NCBI GenBank assembly: GCA_039090665.1
Contig: JAWCSL010000007.1
Coordinates: forward strand, 1 to 39,675
Direction of reading: 5' to 3'
DNA: 39,675 bases
Source of the DNA: Candidatus Aenigmatarchaeota archaeon
GTDB lineage: Archaea; Aenigmatarchaeota; Aenigmatarchaeia; CG10238-14; SCSR01
Shown here: one piece after another, positions 502-17,512 of the stretch
Layout of the letters: each line of letters begins with the position of its first letter
Numbering within the stretch: position 1 is the first letter of the stretch
The notes under the pieces: model-generated
What the model was told of the DNA's origin: nothing
Database searches by the model: none
Seen by the model: the letters and a program-made list of their open reading frames with translations, nothing else
Position numbers and translations under genes: made by a program

Positions 502-553
502 AAATTAGATTTATTATTTTGAATAATGAATAAAACTTTAATAATTATTTTGA

Positions 554-1075: not shown

Positions 1076-1101
1076 ATTGTTATCTATAAGTAGTAAAATA
1101 T

Positions 1102-1962
1102 TTAAAGCTTTTTCTCAGGTTTTTCAAATTTCTTTTTGAGTTCTCTGATTTTTTCTATTTCTTCCATAGTTTTCTGCCATTGTGGACTATCTTTCTCAAA
1201 TAATTTTAATGCTTCTAACAATTTCATCTCGCGGTTTTCCAACTCTGCAAGGTAACCCACTCCCATCAGTTGTGCTGATTCTTTTATACTTATTATACCT
1301 AATGGACTAACAAATTTCTCAGCAGTTTTCCACACAAACCCTGTGAACAAAGTTCCTACCATAAGAGCTCCTATACCAGCAAACCCATAATCTAAGATTT
1401 GGATAAAGTATGTAGCAAAGAATCCTCTAAAAGCAAAAAGTGCCCCGATAACTGCTATAACTCTTCGAACATTCTTATTTCTTATCATGAAAGTTGGCAT
1501 GAACTCAAAAAAGAGAGAAATTAAAAGAGCGAGAGGTGCAATAATGCCAAAAATTATAAATGTTGTAATTGTGAGCCATTCTAAGTTTTGTGGTGCATAT
1601 CCCGTGAAAATACAAGAGGTTGTGTAAAATAGTCCAGGCATTGTGACAATAGAAACATCTGGTTTAAACATCTCTTTACATTCTTCATAAGTTACTGTTG
1701 GTTTGCTGAAGAGTGGAAGTATAACACCAACTATGATTAAAATAATGCTTATATACAATAAAACAACTCCCAAATATAGAACCCATTTCCATTTTCCTAT
1801 CAATGCAGTTACAATACATGTGAAAGCTAGAGCAATAAAAAATATCCACCAGCCACTGAGTGTCCTAGCCCATCCTGGTGCCTCAACTCCTTGAGCTGGG
1901 GCTAAGGAAAAAGAAAAAAATAAAAATAACTGCATAAAAAACAAAATTTTTCTTATCTCCAT
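1102..1962 (-). CDS. Hypothetical multi-pass membrane protein with C-terminal coiled coil
   Basis: Track ORF 1102..2046; start moved to ATG 1962 (MEIRKILFF, signal-peptide-like) to avoid overlap with divergent gene at 2017; several hydrophobic segments, E/K-rich tail. Confidence 0.75.
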   Translation of the reverse strand: MEIRKILFFMQLFLFFSFSLAPAQGVEAPGWARTLSGWWIFFIALAFTCIVTALIGKWKWVLYLGVVLLYISIILIIVGVILPLFSKPTVTYEECKEMFKPDVSIVTMPGLFYTTSCIFTGYAPQNLEWLTITTFIIFGIIAPLALLISLFFEFMPTFMIRNKNVRRVIAVIGALFAFRGFFATYFIQILDYGFAGIGALMVGTLFTGFVWKTAEKFVSPLGIISIKESAQLMGVGYLAELENREMKLLEALKLFEKDSPQWQKTMEEIEKIRELKKKFEKPEKKL

Positions 1963-2016
1963 AATTTTATTAAGTATTTTCAGAAATTTAAGCATAAATT
2001 TGGCATAGATTTTATT

Positions 2017-3165
2017 ATGAGTTCTCTTCTGAGTAAGATAGAACAAAACATTAAAACCAGCTTCGAAATTTTAAGCGATTATGTTTTTTTAATAGATGAT
2101 ATTTATTATCTACCAAACCCTTCCATCAAACCACCATTAAAAAATTATAAATTCAAGTACTTACGCTCGGATCAAGATGGTGTTTATGAAGCTGAAGGTA
2201 CACCCTGGCTTTCTTACTTACATTTCAAGAATATGCTAGGCGATGAAAACGCAAAATCTTTGATTGAAAGTGTGAGTAAAAAATCTGTTGAAGATAAAGA
2301 AAGAGAAATTTGTGAATTCTTGAAGGAAAATCACATAAACTTTCAAAAGTTCTTTTCAGCAGGTAAAAAAGCTGTTGAAGAATTCAAGCCAGTGAAAAAT
2401 CTTTTCAACTTTGTTCACTCTGTCCAAACAAAACTATCTTACTATCTTGATATAAGATCTGGCACATTTGGTGAAATCAGGATCGGCAAAAGCTATTTTG
2501 ATGGGCCCCTTAAAATTTTTTGGAAAAATTTAGGAGTTTCTTCTGAACAAATTGGTGGGTCAAAGGCCTATTTCGATGAAGAAGGTACCTTGGAAAAAAT
2601 AGAGCTTGAGCTAGAACACAAAAAATCCCAACCTATGCCAAATTATCTTCAATATGTACTAGGCTTCACAGACACACCCCAAACCGATTTCCCGATGATA
2701 GATGTTAATCTCAATATATTGCCTTTAGTTTTTTCATTTGGTAAGCTTGCTGAAATTCCGAGAGGGATCGTAATACCATGTCAAAATGCGAAAAAAGATA
2801 TGATGGAAGCAATTAGAATAATGTTGAAAGTTGAAAGGGGAATTGTTGAGTATTTCGGAAATGTGGATGTAGAGGGAGCAAAGAAAATTGGAAAAGAAGT
2901 TAAAAGATTATATGAAATTTGTTTTTCTAGCCATCAAAATTTTTTGAAATACAAGGAAAGTTTTGTGAATAAAAGTTTAGATTTTTTAGAAAAGTTAAGT
3001 GTTGAAATTGGGAAAAGAAAATATCCTCTTTTCCCAGAAGAATTAACAGGAATAAAAAAATATTTAATAACTCTTCAAAACTCAACTAATTTTGAAATTA
3101 GCAAAGAATTAAGTGATAAAATAATTTATCTTATGAAGAAATATTCAGCCGAATTTCCTAGATAA
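2017..3165 (+). CDS. Hypothetical protein (382 aa)
   Basis: Long ORF with typical composition; no family recognised. Confidence 0.75.
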   Translation: MSSLLSKIEQNIKTSFEILSDYVFLIDDIYYLPNPSIKPPLKNYKFKYLRSDQDGVYEAEGTPWLSYLHFKNMLGDENAKSLIESVSKKSVEDKEREICEFLKENHINFQKFFSAGKKAVEEFKPVKNLFNFVHSVQTKLSYYLDIRSGTFGEIRIGKSYFDGPLKIFWKNLGVSSEQIGGSKAYFDEEGTLEKIELELEHKKSQPMPNYLQYVLGFTDTPQTDFPMIDVNLNILPLVFSFGKLAEIPRGIVIPCQNAKKDMMEAIRIMLKVERGIVEYFGNVDVEGAKKIGKEVKRLYEICFSSHQNFLKYKESFVNKSLDFLEKLSVEIGKRKYPLFPEELTGIKKYLITLQNSTNFEISKELSDKIIYLMKKYSAEFPR

Positions 3166-3166
3166 A

Positions 3167-4471
3167 TTATTTCATCTTTTCATACTGGGAAATTATTCTT
3201 TCAATTGTTTTATGAAGATCTTCTTTGTCTCTCTTTAACTGTGGTAAGATTTTTAAAGCTTCTTCCATCAACATATTTCCAGGTATTTGATAGTCTGGAG
3301 AAGAAAAAAACTGATCAAATCTTCTGTAAAAATAGAAAATGAGCGAACTTGATTCTTCATTTCCTTGTTGGCGGAGAGTGTGGGCCAAATCATTCATTAC
3401 ATTCAATGTTTCTTCTACAGTACCTCTTTCCAGAAGTCGTCCTAAATTTGCTGCTTTAAACAAAATATCCGAAATTATTACTTCGACTTGGTATATTGCT
3501 TCCTTTTCTTGGGCTGGTGTGAAAGTCTCTTCGGATCTAACTTCAATTGCTACTTTCTTTTCTTTTCTGGCCTCTTTTTTCAGACCAGAAAATCTATTTA
3601 TTAATCCTTGACTTGCCCAAACCAAAATATTTTCTAACAAATTCTGACATTCAACAGAAAGCTCAGAGTTTTTACTTATTTCTTCAAAAGGTTTATCTGT
3701 TGATAAAGCAACACCATAACCTACAGAAGAAAGTATTCCGACACTTGAATAAAGTTGATAAAGAATCTCATTCATATCTATCCCACCAACAAGATAATAT
3801 TCACCTTCCCACTTATACTTTTCCTCTAATTTATCTTCTACTAGAAATCTCTCCATCCCCTCTGAGTTTTTCCATTCAGTTAATCTTTGGAGAAATACTC
3901 TTTCACCTTTATGTCTGAAAAAAGAAATAAACTTTCTATCATCTTCATTTATTTCTTTTAGAAGTGAAAATGGAAGATTAGAAGAAGGTAAGGATCTAAT
4001 TTTTCTTGAAAAATTACTACATGGTAACTCAAGTTTTTTCATCACTCTTTTATACTCTGAAGAGAAAAAACTATCTTTCTTGTAGACAAGTTGGTAAGTT
4101 CCGAAGTCAACTGATGGTATGAACTGTCTAAAAATAAGTTCAGTATCAAACAATTGTTCAACAAAATTACTCCTTTTAAAAATCTCATATTCTTCTGGAT
4201 CTTTATAGTCTACAATTAGGACAATCCCTCCTTTGCTCCTATATTTCTTTAAAAGAGCTATTTCTTCCTTTGAGAATGATGTTCTGGGATTATAAATTAA
4301 GAGACAAGAACCTTTTTCCAAACTTTCTTGCGTCAATTTCTCTTCAGAAAAAAGAAAATCTATTGTTTCTCTTGAATTGTTTATAAATTCTATTGGAGGA
4401 GTATCCTCTCCATGGGAAAGTGAAACTATCACTCTGGCTTCTAGACTCACATTTAAAAAAAATAAACTCAA
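3167..4471 (-). CDS. Hypothetical protein with putative N-terminal GIFT/GldG-IFT52-like (GATase-like fold) domain and helical C-terminus
   Basis: 'IVSLSHGE' and 'LLIYNPRTSFSKEEIALLKKYRSKGGIVLIV' resemble the GIFT/DUF4350 pattern; start uncertain (TTG 4471 or a downstream GTG). Confidence 0.55.
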   Translation of the reverse strand: MSLFFLNVSLEARVIVSLSHGEDTPPIEFINNSRETIDFLFSEEKLTQESLEKGSCLLIYNPRTSFSKEEIALLKKYRSKGGIVLIVDYKDPEEYEIFKRSNFVEQLFDTELIFRQFIPSVDFGTYQLVYKKDSFFSSEYKRVMKKLELPCSNFSRKIRSLPSSNLPFSLLKEINEDDRKFISFFRHKGERVFLQRLTEWKNSEGMERFLVEDKLEEKYKWEGEYYLVGGIDMNEILYQLYSSVGILSSVGYGVALSTDKPFEEISKNSELSVECQNLLENILVWASQGLINRFSGLKKEARKEKKVAIEVRSEETFTPAQEKEAIYQVEVIISDILFKAANLGRLLERGTVEETLNVMNDLAHTLRQQGNEESSSLIFYFYRRFDQFFSSPDYQIPGNMLMEEALKILPQLKRDKEDLHKTIERIISQYEKMK

Positions 4472-4486
4472 AAATATTTTAAGTTT

Positions 4487-4510
4487 TGGGTAAAAGAATG
4501 GGTAAAAGAA
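4487..4510. repeat. Perfect 12-bp tandem repeat (TGGGTAAAAGAA)x2 in divergent intergenic region
   Basis: Read directly at 4487-4498 and 4499-4510. Confidence 0.85.
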
Positions 4511-4548
4511 TCAGTTAAATAATATAATTAGATTTAGAAATATTAATT

Positions 4549-5394: not shown

Positions 5395-5430
5395 TCTTGT
5401 TTTTTAAATTTGTAAATCTAACTCTTTTTT

Positions 5431-6420
5431 ATGAAAGGCATTGCTCTTGCTCTGATTGGTATTTGTCTAATAGCTGTTGTTGTGGTTGTGGGTTATTTTG
5501 TTTATCAAAGCTTTAGCACTAAAGTATTTGTTGAAGCTTATACCCCTAACATACCAAATTTTGTCGATGTAAATTTCTTTATTGGGACTGAAAGTAAAGA
5601 AGGACTTCCCACAAGATTCTTGGATGTAAAAAAGGGTTATTTTGAATTTCCTTTTAATATAAAAAATTTGTTTGACGAAAAAATTAAAACAAGGATTTGT
5701 CCAAGTATTATTGTCAAACACTTAAATTCGATTTCTTCGATAGATGCTGATTGTCTGGAATTTGAAATGAATCAAGGGGAAGAGAAAAAACTAAACATAA
5801 AAATCCCTTTTAGTGGAGAGGAACAGAAACTTCTAAATTCAACAAAAACTGTTTTGAGAATAGAAGTGGAGTATAGTGGTGTGATAAAAAGTCTTTGTGA
5901 TTTGTATTTGAATACCGGCTATCCTTATTGTAAAATTTCAGATTCTTCGTCTCTTAAAATCTCGCCAGACCTAAGACCAAATCCAATAAATTTGGTTAAA
6001 GATGAAAAATTCTCTGTTTATCTTGGAATCAAAAAATTTTCAGAATATCTCGAACTTAAAGAAGTGAAAATTTTCCCGATTGAAACAAGAGTTATAACAA
6101 TTTCTCATGGTAAAGAAACCATAGAAACAATAACTTTAGAAGAAAATTATACCTCTAGTTTATCTTATGTTGTTTCTTTACCTGAGGACTATCTGTTTTT
6201 ACACGAATTTGCTGCCCCAAAGATAAAAGTTGAAGATAGGGAAAGACAAGAATATATAAACATAAATTGTGAGTCTGAAAGTGCAAAGAAACTGAAGATA
6301 TGTGAATTTAAAGGAAAGGATGAAAAGATTGAGCAAGCTTTTAAGAAGCTTGTCTTAGAAATAAAAATATATTTCCTCAGCAGAAGATCAATAGAAGAAA
6401 GCTTGTATGTGGTTAGCTAA
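5431..6420 (+). CDS. Class III signal-peptide surface protein (large pilin-like, beta-rich)
   Basis: MKG/IALALIGICLIAVVVVVGYFVY fits PibD-type cleavage motif; several paired Cys. Confidence 0.7.
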   Translation: MKGIALALIGICLIAVVVVVGYFVYQSFSTKVFVEAYTPNIPNFVDVNFFIGTESKEGLPTRFLDVKKGYFEFPFNIKNLFDEKIKTRICPSIIVKHLNSISSIDADCLEFEMNQGEEKKLNIKIPFSGEEQKLLNSTKTVLRIEVEYSGVIKSLCDLYLNTGYPYCKISDSSSLKISPDLRPNPINLVKDEKFSVYLGIKKFSEYLELKEVKIFPIETRVITISHGKETIETITLEENYTSSLSYVVSLPEDYLFLHEFAAPKIKVEDRERQEYININCESESAKKLKICEFKGKDEKIEQAFKKLVLEIKIYFLSRRSIEESLYVVS

Positions 6421-6776
6421 TAAGAACTTTGACAATTGCAGCTTTTAAGACAATCGTCAAAGTTCTTATAACCAAAAAAGCTACAAACTTCGCCAAAAGT
6501 TGCTCTGTTTATCTCAGATTCTCTGTTATTTGGATCCGGCAATCTTTGCCCTATCTGATCGTACAAAATTCCACTTTTTTCATATTCAAGTGTTGGCATA
6601 TAAGTGTTTATACAACCTCTTCCATTCATTTGCCTACACAATTCTTGATGTCCTGTTATTTTGAATGTCCATGTCTTGAATGGCCCAAACTGACCACCAA
6701 ACAAGGCAACAAGAGCTACTGCCACCACTATGATTATTACAAGTGCTGCAATTATCCAAAAAGTTTGTTCTGCCAT
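6417..6776 (-). CDS. Leaderless pilin-like protein with Cys-rich C-terminus
   Basis: MAEQTFWIIAALVIIIVVAVALVALF helix; Cys pattern LCxxxxxxGC...FGEVC...CLKSCNC shared with 10858..11109. Confidence 0.75.
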   Translation of the reverse strand: MAEQTFWIIAALVIIIVVAVALVALFGGQFGPFKTWTFKITGHQELCRQMNGRGCINTYMPTLEYEKSGILYDQIGQRLPDPNNRESEINRATFGEVCSFFGYKNFDDCLKSCNCQSSY

Positions 6777-6824
6777 TAAATAAATTTTAAATTTATCGAA
6801 ATTTAAAAGTTGCTTTTTTTACCA

Positions 6825-6884
6825 TCAAGGTTCCTGAACCCCAATTAAAAGCGCAAAAATTGTCCAAAACGGTTGTTCAGCTGT
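6825..6884 (-). pseudogene. Decayed duplicate of the N-terminus of pilin-like gene 6417..6776
   Basis: Reads (T)AEQPFWTIFALLIGVQEP* versus MAEQTFWIIAALVII; ACA in place of ATG, truncated after 19 codons. Confidence 0.6.
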
Positions 6885-7298
6885 TTAACTAGAAAGCTTA
6901 AATGTCACATCTTTTGATAAATTTACTTCAATTCTCAGGTCTTTGTAGTTGTAAAATATCTTGCCCTTTACAATTAAAAATCCTGAATCTTCATATGCCT
7001 CTACAAGTTTAAAAATTGATTCTGAATTATCAAAGGTAAGAGAAATTGTTTTTGGAATTTCTTTTGCTATGGATTCATAAGGAATTCCTTTGGTTCTTTT
7101 TTCTAAAACTTTGTTCTCAAAATATTTTCTGAAATAGAATTGTGAATATTCCGCCTCGTTAATGATAGAAGAATATTTTCGTGAAATTGCAGAAATTTCG
7201 ATTTCTCTACTTAATAGTTGACCTAAAAAATAGAATGCTGCAACAGTTAGGCAAACTGTTATTAAAATCGCCAATATATAGCCCACCAAACCCTTCAT
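6885..7298 (-). CDS. Pilin-like protein (class III signal peptide)
   Basis: MKG/LVGYILAILITVCLTVAAFYFL; ATGA overlap with upstream gene. Confidence 0.8.
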   Translation of the reverse strand: MKGLVGYILAILITVCLTVAAFYFLGQLLSREIEISAISRKYSSIINEAEYSQFYFRKYFENKVLEKRTKGIPYESIAKEIPKTISLTFDNSESIFKLVEAYEDSGFLIVKGKIFYNYKDLRIEVNLSKDVTFKLSS

Positions 7299-7681
7299 AC
7301 CACTACCTCTACTTTAATTTTTTTATTATTAGCAAATGTTTCGATTGTAGTTTTCTCACCAGAAATTTTTGGATTTCCTATTTCTTTATCTCCAACCAGA
7401 ATTTTGTAGGTAGGCAACACTTGACTTATCTTAGCCTCTATAGTGCTCTTATCAATTTTTCCCTCCAAGTAACTTAAAACCATTTCGCTCATCTCAGATT
7501 GAGCTATAGCTATTGATAGCATCTGTGATTTCAATGGGTTATAAATTGGTCTATAAGTTATCTCAACCCCTATCTTTATGTTGAGAAAAGACATAATGAA
7601 AAACAAAATACTGGCAAAAATTATGAAAGTTACCAAAAAAATCATTAAGTTGAAAATTTTGGGTAAAAGTAAGCCTTTAAT
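7295..7681 (-). CDS. Pilin-like protein, probable ATT start
   Basis: Track ORF from ATG 7645 extends in frame 12 codons to ATT AAA GGC (IKG/LLLPKIFNLMIFLVTF) at 7681, preceded by GGTGAT SD-like sequence; the ORF is secure, the start is inferred. Confidence 0.7.
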   Translation of the reverse strand: MKGLLLPKIFNLMIFLVTFIIFASILFFIMSFLNIKIGVEITYRPIYNPLKSQMLSIAIAQSEMSEMVLSYLEGKIDKSTIEAKISQVLPTYKILVGDKEIGNPKISGEKTTIETFANNKKIKVEVVV

Positions 7682-8084
7682 AGCTTATCACCATTTTTCC
7701 AAACTTAAATTTTTCTTTTGAATAAATGGTGATTGGGAGAGTGAAGCTTTTTTTGTGTTGAGAACTACCTAGCCTCCAAGTATTTTCAAAATCTGAAACC
7801 TCTATCTCAAATTCATTTGAATTTAAACAAACATTATCTTGATTTAATTTTTCCTCATCAAATATACTTCTGTAAAAATTTCCGCTTTCATCTTCATAAA
7901 TTAAGCATTTGTTCCCGATGATTGAATTGACTGCATCAAATATTTTCCTTTCTTCGGTTGTTTCATTTATTTTTATATTGTAAATTGCAAAAAGGAGAAA
8001 CAAACCCAGAAGAACTGCTATAACTATAATATTTTTCAGTATATCTATCATGTTTTCTGATATTATCCAAACTTGTCCCTTCAT
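7677..8084 (-). CDS. Pilin-like protein (class III signal peptide)
   Basis: Likely start ATG 8084 (ATGA overlap): MKG/QVWIISENMIDILKNIIVIAVLLGLFLLF; two Cys. Confidence 0.8.
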   Translation of the reverse strand: MKGQVWIISENMIDILKNIIVIAVLLGLFLLFAIYNIKINETTEERKIFDAVNSIIGNKCLIYEDESGNFYRSIFDEEKLNQDNVCLNSNEFEIEVSDFENTWRLGSSQHKKSFTLPITIYSKEKFKFGKMVISY

Positions 8085-8461
8085 TCTATCCAAACCTCTT
8101 CTCCTATTTTCTTAATAGTTATGGAATTGTCCAAGCAAGTGGAGTTGCTATCCTTAATTTTAATATAATTTGGTGCTATGATTTCATGTGAATAAACATC
8201 GTTTCCTATTTTTACAATTACTTTGTCATTCAGAATCTTAACATCACACGATTTACCTACAAAAATTCTTGAAGATATGTCAAAATTAGATGAAGATATC
8301 GAGGAAATTATGCTAGCTACTGTTTCTGAAAAAAGTTTAGTGTTTACCCAGTTTCTTCTAAAGATGGATAATCCGATTATATAAGAAGAATAGATTATCA
8401 GTAAAACTATAACTAAATCAGCAAAAAATTGTAAAAATGTAACGAGCAGGGAGCCTTTCAT
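8081..8461 (-). CDS. Pilin-like protein (class III-like signal)
   Basis: MKG/SLLVTFLQFFADLVIVLLII, followed by helix and beta-strands with two Cys. Confidence 0.8.
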   Translation of the reverse strand: MKGSLLVTFLQFFADLVIVLLIIYSSYIIGLSIFRRNWVNTKLFSETVASIISSISSSNFDISSRIFVGKSCDVKILNDKVIVKIGNDVYSHEIIAPNYIKIKDSNSTCLDNSITIKKIGEEVWIE

Positions 8462-8464
8462 AAT

Positions 8465-10870
8465 TTAATTTAGAGCTGGAATCTTAAAATCTATTAAGTC
8501 TGGGCGGTTTTTATAAACATCTGGATAAATAAGCTGTGTCTCTCTATAAACATCTATAATTAATCCAACGAACTCTGAAACTACTGAACAAGCACCAGTG
8601 AACTTTTGACCAAATCCAAAACATGCTGCTACTGCATCTAAGACCCCAGCACCCGCCGTTGCCACAGCACAAAGTGCTGCAGAAACACATTTAGCAACAT
8701 ATTCTCCTGCTTCTAAACCAACATACCAGTTAACCAAACCTGCTGTTGCATAGCAGTAATTCTTTTTGCTGTAAGATAAAGGCATGTAAGGTTCAACATA
8801 TATTGTATCTCCTTGTTGATAAATTTTAAGCTCTGAATAACATGGACTTACTAAATAAAATCTTGGATCTGGAGCAACTATACTGTTTCTCTTCAATTTA
8901 ATTGAATCTATGCCTTTGGCTTGACATGCCTCTGGTAATGGATAAGCTCTCACACAAGCTCCAAGCTGAATACAAATTGCACCATCTTGACATGATGTTT
9001 GACAATAGCCTTCTGGTGGTTTCTCTTTAGAAGGATAGCCATAGTAAGAGAAATACCTATCCCAGTAGGTTGCTCCTAGAGGAGTGTAAAGATCCTGAAT
9101 TCTAAGAATAGCATAGCCTAAAGTTCCTCTAGAAAAGATTTCTGCATCTTCTTTTAGTCTCAATCTTTTACCATTCAGTAAATTCCACAAATTTTTAGAT
9201 TCAGATGAACTTTTTATAACATCTTCCTTTAAATACCTTCTCACGATATCTTGAGTTTCATACAAGATTGTTTCTTCAGAAATGTCTTTACCTTCCATAA
9301 ACAACTCATACAATCTCTCATCGATGTTATTAACTAGTTTTTCCATTTTTGATCCTCTCTCTATGACAGTAAAAAATATACCTTCATCTGCCTCTTTTTG
9401 CAATTTCGTTATTTTAATTGAGATTAATCTCAATGCCTCATCCTCATTAGTAACTTTAACCCCTGCACGCTTAAGAAATTCTACAGCATCCTCAGGATTC
9501 TCTTCAAAGTATCTTTTCATGCTTTCACTCAGTTTTGAAAAAGAATCAGAATCCAAAACCCTATCACTCATTACTGTCTCTTCTAATCTAGCTATCTTTT
9601 CTTCAAATGGTAAGACTATTTTCTTCTTAATTCTTTCAAAAAACGGATCTTCATCAAGAATAACTTCTTTTATCCCCTTTACTCTTCCATATTCGTCTAC
9701 CTCATAAACTGGAACAAAAATATCATCTATTCTGTCTGGCCATCCATTTTCACGGGCATATTCTTCTAGTGGATTTATCACATTTTCTACTGCCTCATCA
9801 CCAAAATCTTTTGCTATTCTCCAATGTTTGAGAGAAGAATCATATTCCCATCCTTTCTTTTTCCAAAGTTCTGCAAGTTCGTCGCTCTCTTCCACTTCTT
9901 CTTTAAAATAACTGGAAATTTTATCTTTCAAATCATCCATTTTTATTGAAAATCTTCTTTTGGCTTGAGCTATCTTAGTTTTCAAATAGTTCTGAACTTT
10001 TGGTATGACAAATTTTTGCAGAATAATTTTAGTCACATCTGCCCCAATTCCAACAATTACTCCCTCCTTCAAACAATCGCCTAGAGTTTTATCTTGCATT
10101 GCCAAACATAATAGAGTATAGCCGGCTGTGACTTTTCCTATGAATTTTCCTTCTCTCACTACAAATTTTCCTGCTTTTATCACACCCCTCTTTAATTTTC
10201 CCATATTCTCTATCACATCATCTGCACCGTTTTCTAGGGCATTCCATGCTCTCTTCAATTTAGCAAAAGTTTCTGGTGAAATTGACTCTATTTTATCCCT
10301 AATTTTATTAGCAATTTTTCTTCCAACCGTTATCGTACCTTCTTTTCCAGCCTCTGCAGCAGTTTCTAGGCCAAATATATCCATACCCAAAAACACAGAG
10401 TCCAAAGTAACTGTCAACAAAAAATTAGAGCTCCATGGCAAATCCTCCGACCAGGGGATGAAGACTGAAGCTGCTGTTTCCAGAACACCTTGACCAAATT
10501 GATATGGTGGTTCTGGAGGAAAATATTCCCAATAAACTTTATAATAAGGATCATTGAATAATTGTACAGGAATTTCAAGTTCTGGCCCACCTAAACCAAT
10601 TTTTTTCTTAACCCAGTTTATTCCATTTTCTATTTCATCCTTTAGACTTGCAATTCTATTTTGTTCTAACTCAAATTTCAATGTTTTTTCTTCTCCAGTT
10701 TCACAAACATACTCCACACTTTTATAAAAATTATAAGCATTTTGTTCCGCAATTTTATCACTAGAATTGTGGATAAAAAACCACCACAAACCGAATCCTA
10801 CCAACACAGCAATTACTCCACCAACAACCAAAAATCTTAAAGTATACTCATTCAAAATTAACACCCACAA
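8465..10870 (-). CDS. Large pilin-like/membrane-anchored exported protein (about 800 aa), Cys-rich C-terminus with Gly/Ala hydrophobic hairpin
   Basis: N-terminal TM (FLVVGGVIAVLVGFGLWWFF); charged helical middle; 11 Cys in the last ~180 aa; segment SAALCAVATAGAGVLDAVAACFGFG; start uncertain (GTG 10870 or TTG 10855). Confidence 0.8.
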   Translation of the reverse strand: MWVLILNEYTLRFLVVGGVIAVLVGFGLWWFFIHNSSDKIAEQNAYNFYKSVEYVCETGEEKTLKFELEQNRIASLKDEIENGINWVKKKIGLGGPELEIPVQLFNDPYYKVYWEYFPPEPPYQFGQGVLETAASVFIPWSEDLPWSSNFLLTVTLDSVFLGMDIFGLETAAEAGKEGTITVGRKIANKIRDKIESISPETFAKLKRAWNALENGADDVIENMGKLKRGVIKAGKFVVREGKFIGKVTAGYTLLCLAMQDKTLGDCLKEGVIVGIGADVTKIILQKFVIPKVQNYLKTKIAQAKRRFSIKMDDLKDKISSYFKEEVEESDELAELWKKKGWEYDSSLKHWRIAKDFGDEAVENVINPLEEYARENGWPDRIDDIFVPVYEVDEYGRVKGIKEVILDEDPFFERIKKKIVLPFEEKIARLEETVMSDRVLDSDSFSKLSESMKRYFEENPEDAVEFLKRAGVKVTNEDEALRLISIKITKLQKEADEGIFFTVIERGSKMEKLVNNIDERLYELFMEGKDISEETILYETQDIVRRYLKEDVIKSSSESKNLWNLLNGKRLRLKEDAEIFSRGTLGYAILRIQDLYTPLGATYWDRYFSYYGYPSKEKPPEGYCQTSCQDGAICIQLGACVRAYPLPEACQAKGIDSIKLKRNSIVAPDPRFYLVSPCYSELKIYQQGDTIYVEPYMPLSYSKKNYCYATAGLVNWYVGLEAGEYVAKCVSAALCAVATAGAGVLDAVAACFGFGQKFTGACSVVSEFVGLIIDVYRETQLIYPDVYKNRPDLIDFKIPALN

Positions 10871-11109
10871 TATTTTTTACAGTTTTCTAGTTTCATACCA
10901 TTTTGATCACAAATCTCATCAAAACTCTTTGAGTCAATAACAACAAGATTATCATCACAACCTTTTTTTATGAGCTCTAAACAAGCTTGATTTAATCTTA
11001 TAGTTGGCTCGTTGGCACCACTTTTCATCATTTGCAAAATTACCATGACTGCAAAGAGTAATACGAATGACAAAATTATTAAGAGAATTATGGATAACGG
11101 CTTTTCCAT
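10858..11109 (-). CDS. Leaderless pilin-like protein with Cys-rich C-terminus
   Basis: MEKPLSIILLIILSFVLLFAVMVIL; ACLELIKKGC...FDEIC...CKKYCGC matches Cys pattern of 6417..6776. Confidence 0.8.
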   Translation of the reverse strand: MEKPLSIILLIILSFVLLFAVMVILQMMKSGANEPTIRLNQACLELIKKGCDDNLVVIDSKSFDEICDQNGMKLENCKKYCGC

Positions 11110-11124
11110 AAAATAATTTTGATT

Positions 11125-11259
11125 TTATGGAAAAATAAACTTAACAATACTAAGAAATTTTTCTCTGGCAAAGAAAACTAAAAAAAATGTCAGCAACAAT
11201 AAAGAAATGAGCATGATGACATAAACCAAGTATTTGAAAGGCAAACTTATTCCTTTCAT
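11125..11259 (-). CDS. Micro-pilin, 44 aa (not in ORF track)
   Basis: MKG/ISLPFKYLVYVIMLISLLLLTFFLVFFAREKFLSIVKFIFP*; TGATG coupling to upstream ORF. Confidence 0.75.
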   Translation of the reverse strand: MKGISLPFKYLVYVIMLISLLLLTFFLVFFAREKFLSIVKFIFP

Positions 11260-11396
11260 CATTTCCACGGCTTTGGTATCTTTATATTAGCAATCAATTT
11301 TACTAAATCAACATTTCTTATGATGTAGAATATCACAAAAATTATTATAGCTAGGATTATTATGGAAAGAATCAAGATCCACTCATCTTCACTCAT
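11259..11396 (-). CDS. Leaderless single-TM micro-protein, 45 aa (not in ORF track)
   Basis: MSEDEWILILSIIILAIIIFVIFYIIRNVDLVKLIANIKIPKPWK*; TGATG coupling at both ends. Confidence 0.75.
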   Translation of the reverse strand: MSEDEWILILSIIILAIIIFVIFYIIRNVDLVKLIANIKIPKPWK

Positions 11397-11557
11397 CAAC
11401 TTCCACCAAATATTTTCTTCAAAAATTCTGGTATATTTAATATTTGCTCAAAGGTAGAAGTTCCCGATTCTTTAATCTTCCAATAAAAATACAACATTAA
11501 AAGAAGTGCACTTATTGCCACAATTATAATTACCATTGTGTTTAGCGTTAATTCCAT
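11396..11557 (-). CDS. Leaderless micro-pilin, 53 aa (not in ORF track)
   Basis: MELTLNTMVIIIVAISALLLMLYFYWKIKESGTSTFEQILNIPEFLKKIFGGS*; shares ELTLN with 11578..11772 and EFLKK with 11769..11942. Confidence 0.75.
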   Translation of the reverse strand: MELTLNTMVIIIVAISALLLMLYFYWKIKESGTSTFEQILNIPEFLKKIFGGS

Positions 11558-11577
11558 AATTAATTTTTTTCGTGTCC

Positions 11578-11772
11578 CTAAATAAATACTTCACAAAGTT
11601 CTGCTTTTCCAAAAAGTTTGCCTATAGTCATAAGACATAACTCTTTGCTTGTCCATCCAAAAACATTGGAATGAAAGAAAATTGAAAGAAAGATTATTGC
11701 CAAAACGATAGTCAAAATTATGCCTATTAGTATCACGGTCCAATTCAAAGTTAATTCGATTGCACCTTTCAT
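11578..11772 (-). CDS. Small pilin, 64 aa (class III signal peptide)
   Basis: MKG/AIELTLNWTVILIGIILTIVLAIIF; two C-terminal Cys; ATGA overlap. Confidence 0.8.
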   Translation of the reverse strand: MKGAIELTLNWTVILIGIILTIVLAIIFLSIFFHSNVFGWTSKELCLMTIGKLFGKAELCEVFI

Positions 11773-11942
11773 TTTCCTATCACTTTCTTCAAAAATTCTT
11801 CTATTCTATCATATATTTTTCCTGATTTCAAATCTTCCATAAAACCTTTTGAAAAAAAGATTAAAATTCCTATTATAACTATTGCAACAAGCAAGAAAAA
11901 GATTATAACATAAATGTGGTCTAGCAAATTTATCCCTTTCAT
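11769..11942 (-). CDS. Micro-pilin, 57 aa (not in ORF track)
   Basis: MKG/INLLDHIYVIIFFLLVAIVIIGILIFFSKGFMEDLKSGKIYDRIEEFLKKVIGK*; ATGA overlaps at both ends. Confidence 0.8.
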   Translation of the reverse strand: MKGINLLDHIYVIIFFLLVAIVIIGILIFFSKGFMEDLKSGKIYDRIEEFLKKVIGK

Positions 11943-12061
11943 TTGAATACAACCTCAACAGGGAATTTTAACAAATACCTAACCACAACCATCACCAATA
12001 TGAAAAAAATTATCAATCCTACAACCAAGGACAATACAATTTTTTGTACTCTTTCTTCCAT
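11939..12061 (-). CDS. Leaderless single-TM micro-protein, 40 aa (not in ORF track)
   Basis: MEERVQKIVLSLVVGLIIFFILVMVVVRYLLKFPVEVVFK*; ATG immediately follows stop of platform gene. Confidence 0.7.
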   Translation of the reverse strand: MEERVQKIVLSLVVGLIIFFILVMVVVRYLLKFPVEVVFK

Positions 12062-14089
12062 TCACATCACTTGAAATATATTAATTATCATTCCTGAAAG
12101 TGCAACATAAATAGAAATTGAAAATATAACAAAAATAATTGTGGAAATTAAGAGTATTTTAGAAATGTAATTAACCCAAACAACATAGTCAAAACCTGTT
12201 TCAAGACCAACAACCAAAATTCCTGAAATTATCGAAATTTCTATAAGATAGATACCTATAACAAGTTGGAAAATAGCTGGAGAAACTCTAGCAGTCTTCC
12301 AAACTTCAAGCATCGGAAAACCAATTGAAGGAATACCAGAAATTTCTGTTGGCGTAATCTTTCCTAAACTTACGGAAAATGAGATTAAAATTCCCATAAT
12401 AATTAATCCTAAGGCTGTTGCTACACCAGCGACTAGTGGGTTCAAGAAAAATGACATGAATTTGATTGTAGAAACATTGTCTGCAATCAAATCTTCTATT
12501 TTGTTTTGAAGTAAAGAAAGTTTTTTAAGATGCTTGGAAATTGTCTCAAGAGCTTGAGAAAGAAATATAGAACCTTTTGAAGAAATATCAGCTATTATTC
12601 TGAAAACAGATGTAAGCATCACGGAATTGTATTTTTTCACAATTCCTGTGTTTTTGTCGAAAAGTGCTGAATTTAAACTTCTGCCCAATAATATGTTTTC
12701 TTTCAGATCTTTGAATAGTTCTTCTATTTCAAAAATTTTTGATCTTGTAGAAAGAGAAAGTATTGACCTTTCAAAAGGCACTCCAATTTTTAAAGAATGT
12801 GAAATTTGAAGCAAAATTGAATCTAACTCAGACTCAATTCTTCTTATTTTTTTCATTTTTTCCATTATTTTTCCCGTGTAGAGGATTAAAGGTAAAGTGA
12901 AGAGCGACACAATTGTTATAAGAAATAGAGAAGTTGTAAGTGCGGGTGTTGTCAAATCATTTATAAGAAATTCACATTCTTGAATATTCATTTTCAAACC
13001 TTCTGGCTTTTTTTCAACTTCAAACTTCTCGTTCATCCAAGCCGAACAAAGCTGGAAATTTTTTACATGAAAGTAAATATTCGGTATAAACATCATTGAT
13101 ATTATCAGCCCCAAGATCAAAAGTATAGGAAGAATATTCACTTGTTTATTCAAAAAATTGAATGTTAAAAATTGTCTCTCCAATTCTATTGGCGATGTTA
13201 CAAGAGGTCTTCCGTTTATCACAAACATAATCAAAATGAGAAGAATTGTTGGTAAGAAAACATCATAAACAAAAAATACACCTATGATGTTTAAAAGCTC
13301 TGGTAAGAAAATTGTGAGTAAAGGAATAAGAGTAAGTCCAATAATTGGAAGTATTAGACCTAAAACCATTATGGCTGTTGTTGGGAGCTTTAATTCCCTT
13401 GCATATTTTTCCATTCTTTGGTAACTTTCATCAACGGCCAAACTAGTAGCTTCATCCAACAATTTTTCTCCTTGATATGGGTTTTTAGAATATGCTATTA
13501 GAAGTTTTAGTGCTTCACTAAACTCTCTAGCCTCCACATACCATTTATCAGCAACTTCATTTAAACCTTCTTCAAAAGTAAATATTTTTTGTGAAACTAA
13601 ATCAGACAAAACTTTTCCTAAATCTGCTTTTATCGGACCTCTTAAGTTTTTGTAAGCCAAAATAACCGCATTTTCAAGATTTGGAATTTGAGAAAGAGAA
13701 ATTACCATATAAGTTATGCAATGCACCATTTCAGAAGATGCTTGAGCACGAACAATTTTTACTTTCAAGTATGGATAATAGTAAATGGAAAAGGTGAAGA
13801 ACCCTATCATGAAAAGCAAATAGAAAAAATAAGAAAAATTAAACAATAGAGAAATTATAAAAGCCACCAAAGTAGAAAAAATGAAAAATAGAAATGCGGC
13901 TGAGATATTTGAGGTTGGTGGTATCTTTAGCATAGAAAATTTTATGATCTTCTCTTCTTCTTTCATCTTCCTTTCATTGAACTTTATTCTCAAAATGTTG
14001 TAAGAGAAATTGCAAAAAATCTCATACAGGCTTTTCTTTTTTTTTCTTTCTATTTCCTTATAAATTTCTAGCACTTCTCTTGATACCAT
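12062..14089 (-). CDS. Type IV pilus membrane platform protein (TadC/ArlJ/T2SS-F family, two-domain)
   Basis: Two cytoplasmic domains (YMVISLSQIPNLENAV; QISHSLKIGVPFERSI) each followed by TM bundles; directly downstream of the ATPase. Confidence 0.85.
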   Translation of the reverse strand: MVSREVLEIYKEIERKKKKSLYEIFCNFSYNILRIKFNERKMKEEEKIIKFSMLKIPPTSNISAAFLFFIFSTLVAFIISLLFNFSYFFYLLFMIGFFTFSIYYYPYLKVKIVRAQASSEMVHCITYMVISLSQIPNLENAVILAYKNLRGPIKADLGKVLSDLVSQKIFTFEEGLNEVADKWYVEAREFSEALKLLIAYSKNPYQGEKLLDEATSLAVDESYQRMEKYARELKLPTTAIMVLGLILPIIGLTLIPLLTIFLPELLNIIGVFFVYDVFLPTILLILIMFVINGRPLVTSPIELERQFLTFNFLNKQVNILPILLILGLIISMMFIPNIYFHVKNFQLCSAWMNEKFEVEKKPEGLKMNIQECEFLINDLTTPALTTSLFLITIVSLFTLPLILYTGKIMEKMKKIRRIESELDSILLQISHSLKIGVPFERSILSLSTRSKIFEIEELFKDLKENILLGRSLNSALFDKNTGIVKKYNSVMLTSVFRIIADISSKGSIFLSQALETISKHLKKLSLLQNKIEDLIADNVSTIKFMSFFLNPLVAGVATALGLIIMGILISFSVSLGKITPTEISGIPSIGFPMLEVWKTARVSPAIFQLVIGIYLIEISIISGILVVGLETGFDYVVWVNYISKILLISTIIFVIFSISIYVALSGMIINIFQVM

Positions 14090-14093
14090 CTAA

Positions 14094-16331
14094 TCATCTT
14101 TTAATCTTTTCCTTAAACCAATTTAGCCATCTTTCATAAATCATCTTTGAATCTAGACCACCAACTTCTTCTCTAACCTGCTCTGAAATCATATGAAACA
14201 TTTCATTGCTTTGAACTACTATCTCAGCTTCCAATATATCATCTCTTCCCAATTCTCTGGCAAAATCAACCATTGTTTGTCTTATTTTTGCTCTTAGTAA
14301 AATGTTGTCCCAAACTGCATCCCAATTTCCATGCCACTCTCTAACACGCTTAGCAATTTCATTCAAAACATAGCTCTCGCCATTAATTAAAGTGTCTGTA
14401 GGTTTTAGTCTATCTTCTTTAGCAGAATATTCCATAAGCGTGACAAATCCGCCTTCATCCAAAGGATCTTGTTTCCAATGTTTTCTCACTTCTGTTAGCT
14501 CCGTCACGCGCCTAAATCTTCTCAAACCATCCGGTGTCTTGAGCAAATTGCAAATTGTTATGGCATCCAAAGCTTTAAAGCTTGTTGGTGGAACTTTTAA
14601 GTCATTTACAACCCTATCATAAACTCCATAAGCCGATTCTCCGTGAATTGTGCCAGCAACGAGATTTGCCAAAGCTCCGATTCTCATTGCCTCGAACAAG
14701 GCCAATGCTTCACTGCTTCTTACCTCACCTATTATCAAAACAGAATCTCCTAATCTCAAAGCAGTCCTTAAAGCTTCTTCTGCCGGAAGCTCTGCTTCAA
14801 CCCTTGTTATAACAGATCTAGATTTCAATCTTTCTATGTTGTAGCCTAAATTCATGAGCTGCACTGCCGGAAGCTCTAATGTATCTTCAACAAGACAAAG
14901 ACGGAACTTTTTCATAACTTCAAGCATTATAGCTCCTAACAAGCTTGTTTTGCCTGAGCCTCGACCTCCAGCAACAAGCAAGCTTCTACCTCCATCAACA
15001 ATAAAACTCATAACTCCAGCATACAAAGAATCAAAAAACCCTGCTTTTATGAAAAGTGGGAAAGTCCATGGCTTATCTCTATGTCTTCTAAAAGCATAAC
15101 CAAGACCATAAGGAGATAAAGTTCTTGTTATTGCCGCAACTCTTGCCCTCCCACCAGGTACTAAAAGCTCTGTATCAAGCACGGGATTTGCTTCATCTAA
15201 AGGCCTTCCTGAATAAAGCCTAAATCTTGTTGCCCAAGCATCTGCATCTTCTTTTGTTGGCAACAAATTTGTTTCACATTCTTCAAACTCGGCATGATTG
15301 ATGAAAATTGGTGTGGAGCCTATTGGTGAGTTTATGTAAACATCTTGAACTTTCTCATCTGCAAGTAAAACTTCCAAAATGCCAAAACCTGCAGTATATC
15401 TTGCAAGAATCTCTGCCAGTTCTTCAAGCTCTTGAGAAGAAAGCTCAACCCCCCTGCTTCTGGCTATATCTCTTATTAAATCCCTTCCTATGCTCATAAA
15501 AACTTCTCTTGCTTTCTCTGGTTCAGTGAATTCCCTTTCTGAAGGCCTATGCTCAGCAAGGTATCTTCTTGCTAGATCCAAAATCATGTACTTATCTTCA
15601 CTCAAAGTGAATTCTGGTGGAATCACATGATAAACATACCTTATCTTTCCCGGAACTTTGAAAATTTCAACAGAAGTTTTACCAACAAAATATTTTTGAA
15701 TTGAAATCCCGTCTTTTGGGGGCATAATCATATAGCGCGTAAGCATAAAATTAGGTCTTATTAGAGGTCTGAAAACTTGTCTGTAAAAGCTTCTATCTCC
15801 TGGTTTGAATTGGGAGAGTTTTGATTTGAAAATTTGAATTAAAGTGCAACTAGACAAAATTTTTTCCATTGGCAACAAAACTTTTTCAAGATATTCTGTA
15901 TGACAAAGTTTTGTTTGATCTTGAAATTTTTCTGCCATCATTTTTTCTCTCAAAATCATCTTTTCTAACATCACATAAGCCCCTATTGGGTCTTTTCTCA
16001 AAACTTGAGTAACAAGAAATTGAAGTTCTGAAAGTCTTCTTGGAAAAAGCTTTTCGCATTGGCTTGGGCCAAACTTGTTGATGGAGATAAGCTTCTCTTC
16101 ATTCAAAATCTTGTTATAAGCATTAGCTATTTCTTTTAAAAGTTTAACTTGCTCATAATCATATTCCCTTTCTCTTGTTTCAACTATAACAATTCTTTCC
16201 ACACCCTTGGTTTCAAGCAAAGTATCGATTACCACAGCCATACAAGCCTCTGAGTCTTCTATGCTTGGCTCTATAGCCCAGTTCATAGCATTTATTCTAA
16301 GAGTGTTTTCAATAACCTCATAATCTACCAT
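14094..16331 (-). CDS. Type IV pilus/secretion ATPase (VirB11/CpaF/ArlI family)
   Basis: Walker A GGRGSGKT, Asp box VEDTLEL, Walker B LIIGEVR, His box GTIHG; N-terminal extension. Confidence 0.95.
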   Translation of the reverse strand: MVDYEVIENTLRINAMNWAIEPSIEDSEACMAVVIDTLLETKGVERIVIVETREREYDYEQVKLLKEIANAYNKILNEEKLISINKFGPSQCEKLFPRRLSELQFLVTQVLRKDPIGAYVMLEKMILREKMMAEKFQDQTKLCHTEYLEKVLLPMEKILSSCTLIQIFKSKLSQFKPGDRSFYRQVFRPLIRPNFMLTRYMIMPPKDGISIQKYFVGKTSVEIFKVPGKIRYVYHVIPPEFTLSEDKYMILDLARRYLAEHRPSEREFTEPEKAREVFMSIGRDLIRDIARSRGVELSSQELEELAEILARYTAGFGILEVLLADEKVQDVYINSPIGSTPIFINHAEFEECETNLLPTKEDADAWATRFRLYSGRPLDEANPVLDTELLVPGGRARVAAITRTLSPYGLGYAFRRHRDKPWTFPLFIKAGFFDSLYAGVMSFIVDGGRSLLVAGGRGSGKTSLLGAIMLEVMKKFRLCLVEDTLELPAVQLMNLGYNIERLKSRSVITRVEAELPAEEALRTALRLGDSVLIIGEVRSSEALALFEAMRIGALANLVAGTIHGESAYGVYDRVVNDLKVPPTSFKALDAITICNLLKTPDGLRRFRRVTELTEVRKHWKQDPLDEGGFVTLMEYSAKEDRLKPTDTLINGESYVLNEIAKRVREWHGNWDAVWDNILLRAKIRQTMVDFARELGRDDILEAEIVVQSNEMFHMISEQVREEVGGLDSKMIYERWLNWFKEKIKR

Positions 16332-16377
16332 ACAATTAATTTATCTATTCCACAAAACAAATTGTTTATTGAGAGAT

Positions 16378-16767
16378 ATGGCTGCTAAAGAAGCTGGAAT
16401 AGAAGTTTTGACAAGTGAAATGGTAAGGAGATTGAACGAATATAGCAGTAGGATAAAAAATGTAGAATTAAGACTTGAAAGAATAGAAAGTAGAGTAACA
16501 AGTATAGAAGAAACTGTACTAAGCCAATTAAGTAACTTAAAGATTGGTTTAGATAAACTTTCTCAAAAAATTTCTTCTCTTGTGGATAGATTAAACTCAA
16601 TAGAAAGTGAAATTTTGAGAATAAACAAGGAACTTGGTAAGACCGCACTCAAGAGCGATATCAAGAAAATAGAAACTTTTATAGATATTGTTAATCCCGT
16701 GACTTCAAAATTTGTTACAAGAGATGAATTAGAAAGAATTCTGGAAGAGAAGCTCAAAGAAACATAA
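16378..16767 (+). CDS. Coiled-coil hypothetical protein
   Basis: Heptad-rich helix ending KFVTRDELERILEE; divergent from ATPase; ATG 16378 preferred over TTG 16369. Confidence 0.75.
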   Translation: MAAKEAGIEVLTSEMVRRLNEYSSRIKNVELRLERIESRVTSIEETVLSQLSNLKIGLDKLSQKISSLVDRLNSIESEILRINKELGKTALKSDIKKIETFIDIVNPVTSKFVTRDELERILEEKLKET

Positions 16768-16807
16768 ATTTGTATTTAAAAAACCAGAAAATAATATAGG
16801 GAAAATC

Positions 16808-17470
16808 ATGCCTTTGCCTTTTTTACAACAAAAACCAGAAGTTGTAAAAAGCAAGCCACCTGTAGAAAGGATAAAAGAACTTTCTTCAAAAGGATTCTCA
16901 GAAGTTGAAATAATTGATATTCTTAGAAAGGAAGGTTATTCTCCAGAAGAAATAGATGTTGGTCTTACAGAAGCTTTGAAAATGGGAGTTAGTGGTATAT
17001 CTCCTCCTGGAGAAGGTCCTGTTAGCTTACCCAAGCTTGAAGACCTGCAACCAAAACAAACACAACTAGAAATACCAGAAACATCCTTACCTCAAGACTA
17101 TTCTTATTACACTACACCTCTCTATGCTCTACATTCAGAACAATCATATCCAACAGAAGATTACATAGAATTCATTGTAAAGGAAAAAACAGCAGAACTT
17201 AATGATAAGCTTAAAGAATTTATGATAAAATACTCAGAGCTTGAAAAGAAGTTTGCTGAAATTCATCAACAATTGAATGAGCTTATGAGAGCCAAAACAA
17301 GCGGTGAACAACTTGTACTTGCAAGGCTAGATGAGGTGAAATCTGTTTTAACTGATATGGAAACAAGAATTGCTGGTTTAGAAAAAGCTTTTAAAGATGC
17401 TTTACCAGCATTGATAGAAAGTGTGAGAGCTTTAAGTGATGTGGTACAAAGAGTGAAAAAACTTTCTTGA
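16808..17470 (+). CDS. Hypothetical protein: helical N-domain, Pro-rich linker, C-terminal coiled coil
   Basis: Repeated GFSEVEI/GYSPEEI motif, P/Q-rich linker, long heptad repeat. Confidence 0.75.
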   Translation: MPLPFLQQKPEVVKSKPPVERIKELSSKGFSEVEIIDILRKEGYSPEEIDVGLTEALKMGVSGISPPGEGPVSLPKLEDLQPKQTQLEIPETSLPQDYSYYTTPLYALHSEQSYPTEDYIEFIVKEKTAELNDKLKEFMIKYSELEKKFAEIHQQLNELMRAKTSGEQLVLARLDEVKSVLTDMETRIAGLEKAFKDALPALIESVRALSDVVQRVKKLS

Positions 17471-17512
17471 ACAAACTTAAATTTTTCAGAAATCAAATAA
17501 AAATTGAGAGAA

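Follow-up and report, generated by a model that had tools for sequence, protein, structure and literature searches.

The 801-codon open reading frame at 8465..10870 on the minus strand of a 39,675-nucleotide stretch from a Candidatus Aenigmatarchaeota archaeon (assembly GCA_039090665.1, contig JAWCSL010000007.1; the whole stretch is called the window here) may encode a tip subunit or large minor pilin of a type IV filament specific to its Aenigmatarchaeota lineage, a reading to which we assign a probability of about 0.5. An earlier sequence-only reading had described the product as a pilin-like, pilus-linked protein with the architecture of a toxin or fusogen that inserts into a host membrane. 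The pilin-like part of that description is borne out by the position of the gene in the pilin array of a filament operon, by a long N-terminal helix and by a class III signal motif in part of the family, and the membrane-inserting part gained no support.

The frame is open from a TTG codon at 10870 to a stop codon at 8465-8467, and a second in-frame TTG at 10855 gives a protein of 796 residues beginning MNEYTLRFL. The closest annotated homologues start with MNE[YF]TLRFL, and the TAA of the upstream 83-residue frame occupies 10860-10858, two bases before the second TTG; for these reasons 8465..10855 is likely to be the actual gene. Residue numbers refer to the 801-residue frame throughout. This is a genuine conserved gene and not a chance frame, since searches returned 45 homologues (E≤1e-3) from a set of 5.8 billion clustered proteins and 42 cluster representatives from an exhaustive library, and since its ratio of nonsynonymous to synonymous substitution rates (dN/dS), 0.12-0.16 over the whole gene against three relatives, indicates purifying selection. 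The ten homologues that come with an organism name all carry that of Candidatus Aenigmatarchaeota (DPANN), and the 25 related loci found in species-representative genomes are filed under Aenigmatarchaeota (22), ‘uncultured archaeon’ (2) and Candidatus Calescibacterium (1).

Operon context and the N-terminal helix

The gene is part of an operon read entirely from the minus strand, in which a filament ATPase and a platform protein are followed by six tiny pilins, an 83-residue pilin, the 801-residue protein and five further pilin-like genes. The ATPase (14094..16331, 745 residues) carries PF00437 at 6.1e-15 and a long N-terminal extension, and its own N-terminal 285 residues turned up in 198 of the 201 genomes sampled from the phylum. 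It matches the NCBIfam models TadA (1.6e-36) and FlaI (2.2e-33), in both cases below the curated equivalog cut-off. The polytopic platform (12062..14089, 675 residues) is TadC/FlaJ-like, with a weak PF00482 match (E 0.0011) under the gathering score. The genome also has a prepilin peptidase gene (PF01478), on a different contig.

Between the platform and the large gene, six frames of 40, 57, 64, 53, 46 and 47 residues (11125..12061) abut or overlap one another. They consist of hardly anything beyond a single hydrophobic helix, with an MKG leader in three of them, and are Flp-sized candidate major pilins. Such an array was common to eight of the nine loci inspected, the exception being L009. 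The immediate upstream neighbour (10858..11109) is the pilin-like protein of 83 residues, with six cysteines, and downstream lie the five pilin-like genes of 126, 138, 116, 137 and 119 residues (6417..8461), of which the 138-residue pilin has a class III motif (KG before Q) and a conserved cysteine pair. Across the 25 related loci, a homologue of the platform is present in 23, of the 138-residue pilin in 17, and of the ATPase in 11, the last count being low because many of the contigs are short. The order of platform, tiny pilins, cysteine-containing pilin of about 90-100 residues, large protein and pilins of 120-190 residues recurs even where the large proteins are only about 30% identical. 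A complex prediction for the whole protein with the neighbouring 138-residue pilin scored 0.00 with controls not run, and is evidence in neither direction.

The N-terminus has the features expected of a pilin in that a strongly hydrophobic segment opens a long helix. Residues 13-37 (10760..10834, minus strand) form a 25-residue uncharged run and the sole membrane-grade segment of the protein, with a KD19 hydrophobicity score of 2.34 at residues 15-33; here and below, membrane-grade means a KD19 of at least 1.6, the cut-off used across 52 aligned members. All 52 members exceed it in this helix (median 2.48), in agreement with the N-terminal transmembrane segment originally proposed. In a full-length AlphaFold model built from the 52-sequence alignment (mean predicted local distance difference test (pLDDT) 70, predicted template modelling score (pTM) 0.49), residues 8-58 form a single helix of 51 residues followed by a strand at 62-68, with pLDDT 92-96 at 41-70. 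In length and position this helix resembles the alpha-1 helix of type IV pilins. In the model, strands follow the helix at 62-68 and 110-114; fold searches, in which the N-terminal part was barely sampled, turned up no pilin chain.

The processing signal divides the family. In 16 of the 52 members a [KR]G pair immediately precedes the hydrophobic helix (for example MKG/LTISAQMLKF and AAKG/FTISAQ, the slash preceding position +1), which is the class III signal pattern. Another 18, the clade of the window's protein, start with MNE[FY]T.RFL, and their initial methionine aligns with position +1 of KG/MTEFQLRF. The remainder comprise 15 members that start with MK and lack the glycine, and three with uncertain starts. 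Among distant relatives of 850-1176 residues, KG or RG occurs in seven of 13. Under none of its three possible starts does the window's protein have a glycine at position −1, and hence no class III cleavage site was found in it. Judged from these alignments, the protein looks like a leaderless version of a pilin-like substrate family.

Module architecture and conservation

Beyond the helix, the protein is divided into modules of very different conservation. Residues 38-160 (10391..10759, minus strand) constitute a conserved N module with invariant C56 and Q70, the motifs DPYYxxYWExFPPEPPY and PWSEDLPWSSN, and the AlphaFold strand at 110-114; the same module occurs in the distant relatives. Residues 161-300 (9971..10390) consist of Lys-rich amphipathic helices and a helix-turn-helix with the cysteine pair C255/C266, and model confidence is low at 154-191 and 280-304. 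The Gly/Ala/Lys segments to which the sequence-only reading had drawn attention are all present in the translation. Residues 301-560 (9191..9970) form a charged, cysteine-free middle, the least conserved part, which AlphaFold models as mixed alpha/beta and which contains coiled-coil-like inserts of 128-152 residues in one subgroup of homologues. This region had been described as a charged helical insert of about 270 residues; its charge is evident (41% K/R/D/E and no cysteine over residues 301-570), and its purely helical character is not, since the model contains strands as well as helices.

The best conserved module, residues 561-720 (8711..9190), carries the motifs QDLYTPLGATYWD, DPRFYLVSPC and NYCYAT together with five invariant cysteines, and reaches pLDDT 84-96 at residues 630-720 of the full-length model. 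It is followed by a helical hairpin rich in Gly, Ala and Cys and of variable length (residues 721-780, 8531..8710), with C728, C734, C750 and C761. Invariant in the 52 aligned homologues are P108, F117, P118, the stretch Y672-L-V-S-P-C677, Y705 and C706, as well as the polar residues E142/D143, D593, R661 and S675; Y109 and E115 are conserved at 90% or more. The end motifs named beforehand (PYYxVYWExFP, FYLVSPC and NYCY) are thus conserved across the 52 members.

Averaged over 51 homologues, identity to the window's protein is 49% for residues 6-160, 38% for 161-300, 29% for 301-560, 61% for 561-720 and 40% for 721-801. The corresponding values for the closest relative, which is 88% identical overall, are 97%, 94%, 77%, 94% and 83%. 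Conserved ends around a variable middle had been anticipated, and that contrast is real (49% and 61% against 29%). The hypervariability that had been expected of the middle does not extend to positive selection: dN/dS against three relatives is 0.17-0.22 in the middle, compared with 0.04-0.13 across residues 6-300 and 561-720, and 0.11-0.18 across 721-801. Diversifying selection on the middle was rejected on these values, which reflect relaxed constraint.

In a profile search of 201 sampled Aenigmatarchaeota genomes, the family was matched in 67, in about a dozen of them at full length, and in five of the 41 genomes of the window's own taxonomic family. The other matches are mostly proteins of 850-1335 residues that share one module only, although several have both, and the matched segments span profile positions of about 9-113 for the N module and about 585-715 for the C module. 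As the large relatives share just the N module, the C module or both, the two-module frame is older than the present middle. The charged middle may be a tolerant spacer or a display domain.

Cysteine patterns

The expected 11 cysteines of the C-terminal domain are present, 11 of the 14 in the protein falling within residues 571-801 (positions 623, 627, 633, 639, 649, 677, 706, 728, 734, 750 and 761). Six are invariant across the family: C56 in the N module and C627, C633, C649, C677 and C706 in the C module. The others come and go together. C255 and C266 are both present in 49 members and both absent from three; C623 and C639 co-occur in 33 members and are mutually exclusive with another pair, C697 plus one cysteine in the C-terminal tail (18 members); and the hairpin cysteines 728, 734, 750 and 761, each found in 41-43 members, are mostly lost together. 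The cysteine total is even in 46 of the 52 members, a count inflated by their kinship. This paired gain and loss, together with the even totals, is the signature of disulfides and suggests a disulfide-stapled ectodomain, such as would fit an extracellular head in a thermophile. The N module has a single invariant cysteine and the C module has five, which suggests a disulfide between C56 and one of those five that links the two modules; the modules would then share one compartment. Two further staples are predicted among the four hairpin cysteines. The pilin-like neighbours of 83 residues (10858..11109) and 119 residues (6417..6776), both on the minus strand, also have six cysteines each (7.2% and 5.0%), whereas cytoplasmic proteins of the window contain 0-1.4%.

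Membrane insertion and searches for known relatives

Outside the N-terminal helix, membrane-grade hydrophobicity is not a family property. It is reached within residues 140-180 in 17 of the 52 members, within 236-295 in three, in the first arm of the C-terminal hairpin in 14 and in the second arm in 13, and in six members the Gly/Ala hairpin is replaced by 15 residues or fewer. In the window's protein, hairpin residues 728-779 score up to 1.87 and, apart from the N-terminal helix, no uncharged run exceeds 17 residues; a bilayer-spanning hairpin, in the sense of two uncharged helices of about 18-20 residues or more, was not found in it. A C-terminal transmembrane anchor is a feature of fusogen families (viral classes I-III and fusexins), and the only membrane-grade segment of this protein is N-terminal. 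Together with the four co-occurring hairpin cysteines and the lack of any toxin or fusogen match in the fold searches described below, these results leave the toxin, fusogen or membrane-inserting function proposed from the sequence unsupported. A reading as a polytopic membrane protein was likewise set aside, on the sub-threshold scores of the additional hydrophobic segments in most members and on the cysteine distribution.

Structure prediction followed by fold search, which had been proposed as a check, led to no toxin, fusogen or other known fold. Foldseek with the full model had no matches at E≤1e-3 in PDB or BFVD, and after realignment of its list the best Z was 3.5, with needle-tip and colicin entries at the noise level of 2.2-2.8. 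VIA-align, run against 48,161 chains, placed residues 711-785 on Vma21p (Z 6.3, root-mean-square deviation (rmsd) 1.9 over 56 residues) and the same hairpin on helices of TRIC and SLC26 (Z 5.2-5.6), the hairpin matches having rmsd 1.2-2.9 over 41-56 residues; by the tool's own calibration note, Z values of 5-6.3 are what any helical hairpin gives. In several weaker rows, segments of 135-290 and 705-790 combined to place about 90-110 residues on compact helical bundles. These low-scoring rows hint that the two sets of helices pack together in the model, too faintly to establish or dismiss the ordinary globular core that had been named beforehand as refuting membrane insertion. When the C-terminal 246 residues were modelled in isolation from 19 sequences, pLDDT fell to 58, worse than for the same part of the full-length model, and the search with this model returned helical hairpins only (best Z 6.1), thereby leaving the beta-rich part unsampled. 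No pore-former, toxin or fusogen appeared in Foldseek against PDB and BFVD or among the listed VIA-align matches, although at a pTM of 0.49 weak fusogen matches could escape.

Sequence searches gave a similar picture. Pfam and NCBIfam returned nothing consistent across the 52 members and no Pfam domain in the 13 distant relatives, and the best ESM Atlas score, 0.80, is at noise level. The best match of a sequence-profile search of PDB was the helical translocation domain of botulinum neurotoxin A (E 0.008, 17.8 bits, profile positions 256-401). We judge this match to be compositional because designed helical bundles, I-BAR domains and apolipoprotein A-I score alike in the same K/E-rich middle region.

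Exchange of the pilin block

The locus is also marked by exchange between close relatives. In two genomes of the same genus, G145 (locus L046, contig G145:C2) and G162 (L047, G162:C21), the ATPase is 85-87% identical and the genes divergent from it 71-86% identical, but the platform is merely 26-29% identical and is accompanied by a different pilin array containing Cys-rich proteins of 292-297 residues, in which no member of the large-protein family was found. Nucleotide similarity to G145 covers 14096-18072 and 4524-5410 of the window, with none between. Because similarity stops at 14096 and resumes at 5410, the comparison places the 801-residue gene in a block of about 8.7 kb (about 5411..14095) that is exchanged as a unit and consists of the platform and the pilins, along with a plus-strand gene for a 329-residue MKG protein.

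A finer pattern is seen against the locus L001. A tract of about 1 kb (about 10400-11390) is 96-99% identical to it, compared with a background of 80-87%, and covers the first 160 codons of the large gene and two small genes upstream. It ends near codon 160, and the synonymous rate (dS) is 0.043 for the first 160 codons as against about 0.75 downstream. A second tract at 20090..20689 is likewise 96-99% identical over the same background, and both tracts probably stem from recent recombination. The 64-residue pilin is 100% identical in L001, where nucleotide identity averages about 86% over the locus.

Interpretation and alternatives

If the protein is a large minor-pilin or tip subunit, its N-terminal helix would serve as an anchor, initially in the membrane and later in the filament core, and its head of about 750 residues, being too large for the filament body, would probably lie at the tip or the start of the filament, as a priming or adhesive subunit. 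Disulfides would staple the conserved N and C modules into a single unit. The leaderless protein of the window's clade would need no prepilin peptidase, since it begins at the mature +1 position. Several observations weigh against this assignment. Canonical prepilin processing cannot be claimed for the window's protein on the evidence of its sequence, because it has no glycine at −1 and because 33 of the 52 members, including this one, lack the [KR]G motif. The fold searches recovered no pilin or adhesin fold, and Pfam and NCBIfam gave no family at E≤0.01 for the window's protein (GspK PF03934 and PilY1 included). The C module is the best conserved part, at 61%, a pattern no less expected of a structural or machinery part than of one that binds a particular host. 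How the cysteines pair and how the hydrophobic helices pack is deduced from sequence patterns only, and the parity of the cysteine counts owes something to the relatedness of the members.

The same observations lend some weight to a different view, which we regard as possible but distinctly less probable, in which the protein is a component of assembly or envelope passage that stays in the membrane, bitopic with a large ectodomain, and holds the filament or opens the S-layer for it without becoming part of it. PilN/PilO, FlaF/FlaG and UpsX offer models for such a membrane-resident component. A missing cleavage motif in most members would be natural here; the C module, at 61% (about 51% in protein P0041 of locus L013), is more conserved than the platform, at 31-33% (L013, L018 and L021), as would be expected of contact with conserved machinery or with the cell's own envelope; and the invariant PWSEDLPW, D593, R661 and S675 could form a binding or catalytic site. 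Priming of the S-layer has been raised for proteins of this sort in PMC13705601. However, part of the family has the class III motif, the mark of substrates of filament machinery, the gene lies inside the pilin array and not beside the ATPase and platform, and it is swapped in one block with the pilins, though that block includes the platform as well. The invariant polar residues could also be taken as the active site (E142/D143, D593, R661 and S675) of an enzyme that the pilus machinery brings to the surface, such as one cutting the S-layer or cell wall; we consider this very unlikely, as neither the 52 members nor the 13 distant relatives matched an enzyme family in Pfam or NCBIfam and no enzyme fold was found. 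The idea with which the sequence-only reading began, a pilus-tip effector acting as pore, translocator or fusogen through Gly/Ala helical hairpins that enter a host membrane, is improbable. In its favour are the small-residue-rich hairpin at 728-779, its superposition on transmembrane hairpins, the borderline match to the clostridial neurotoxin translocation domain and the view, expressed in excerpts of the literature, that DPANN archaea depend on cell contact with their hosts. Set against these are the membrane-grade scores confined to a minority of members, the short uncharged runs, the dispensability of the hairpin, cysteines that suggest staples, generic Z values, a compositional neurotoxin match and the empty toxin and fusogen searches. 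Bolder still, and in our estimation a long shot, is a scheme in which a leaderless, stapled giant pilin at the tip, upon contact, releases its hairpin and amphipathic helices into the host membrane and so starts a cell-to-cell bridge by which these host-dependent archaea would feed, with the exchanged cassette setting the host range.

Relation to known systems

Large or modular minor pilins are familiar from bacteria, in GspK of type II secretion, CofB/TcpB of type IVb pili and PilB/PilC of Streptococcus sanguinis, and PilY1 is a tip adhesin that is not a pilin. Like the large minor pilins, the 801-residue protein combines a pilin-type N-terminal helix with a head too large for the filament body, and its gene lies among minor-pilin genes beside an ATPase and a platform. 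It differs in showing no detected sequence or fold similarity to them, in being archaeal, in the leaderless start of the window's clade, and in having two conserved modules that flank a variable middle and many paired cysteines. With alpha-helical pore-formers such as colicin-type proteins, the diphtheria T domain and the clostridial neurotoxin HN, it shares a hydrophobic, small-residue hairpin among amphipathic helices; unlike in these proteins, the hairpin is not conserved as membrane-grade and is dispensable in six of the 52 members, no fold match was obtained, and the single sequence match is borderline and compositional.

Among archaea, ‘dark matter’ pilus islands of DPANN have been described in which proteins with signal peptides but no recognisable relatives are predicted to be diverse pilins (PMC6393860), and type IV filament loci, ‘System 2’ and others, contain large adhesin-like proteins and motif-less pilin-like proteins (PMC13705601). 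As described there, these loci resemble the window's in the long N-terminal extension of the ATPase, the single platform, the large accessory surface protein, and the many pilins, of which some have the class III motif and others do not. The adhesin-like proteins in the consulted sections of PMC13705601 are of Ig-fold (immunoglobulin), beta-helix or PilY-like type, none of which was found in the window's protein. The same sections state that ordered filament loci are rare in DPANN, whereas the window's locus is compact and ordered. In the portion consulted of PMC8407114, type IV pili were reported in thermal Aenigmarchaeota metagenome-assembled genomes only. UpsX of the Sulfolobales Ups pilus (arCOG05986), as described in PMC13705601, is similarly a conserved, unexplained accessory gene kept with pilins, ATPase and platform; it belongs to a different phylum, and its likeness to the 801-residue protein is one of description. 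The large-protein family is unnamed in the portions of the literature searched, and the supplementary tables of PMC13705601 may list it under an arCOG.

The family is best described as a new one that fills a known type of role in a little-studied system. It is still not understood how DPANN archaea attach to their hosts and exploit them, and we know of no cultured member of the Aenigmatarchaeota. The family is a conserved part of a pilus-like machine in a 0.62-Mb genome with five secretion-type ATPases; as it matches no known fold or domain, it offers a concrete candidate for a protein by which attachment or contact is made. For a pilin-like protein it is unusual in starting, within the window's clade, at the mature +1 residue and in belonging to a block that is swapped while the motor stays. 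Should it merely anchor or prime the filament, it would be an ordinary, though new, accessory subunit.

Genome context and further observations

The genome containing the window amounts to 620,606 bases on 15 contigs and is 90.6% complete. The five PF00437 secretion-type ATPase genes lie on its contigs C8 (three sites), C14 and C13 (genome G000). Housekeeping genes occupy the rest of the window and include those for CysRS, NrdD, RadA, RPA, ribosomal proteins and AglB/STT3. DNA of the window was found in hot-spring metagenome runs from five studies, and among the runs listed as containing it there was no RNA run.

The related locus filed under Candidatus Calescibacterium nevadense (L004, AWOA01000066.1) encodes a large protein 56% identical and an ATPase 57% identical to those of the window, and its contig is probably mis-binned or contaminating. 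Two homologues, P0017 and P0033, bear the misfit names ‘DNA-directed RNA polymerase subunit F’ and ‘methyl-accepting chemotaxis protein’, which are likely to be automatic mis-annotations.

Four plus-strand genes at 16369..18663, divergent from the ATPase, encode two coiled-coil proteins of 132 and 220 residues and proteins of 201 and 184 residues. Ten of the 25 related loci keep them beside the ATPase, and they stay with the motor when the pilin cassette is swapped. At the other side of the operon, 514..4523 is a second stretch devoid of nucleotide similarity to G145 between two matching flanks; it holds four open reading frames, of 173, 314, 382 and 434 residues, with no Pfam family above the gathering score.

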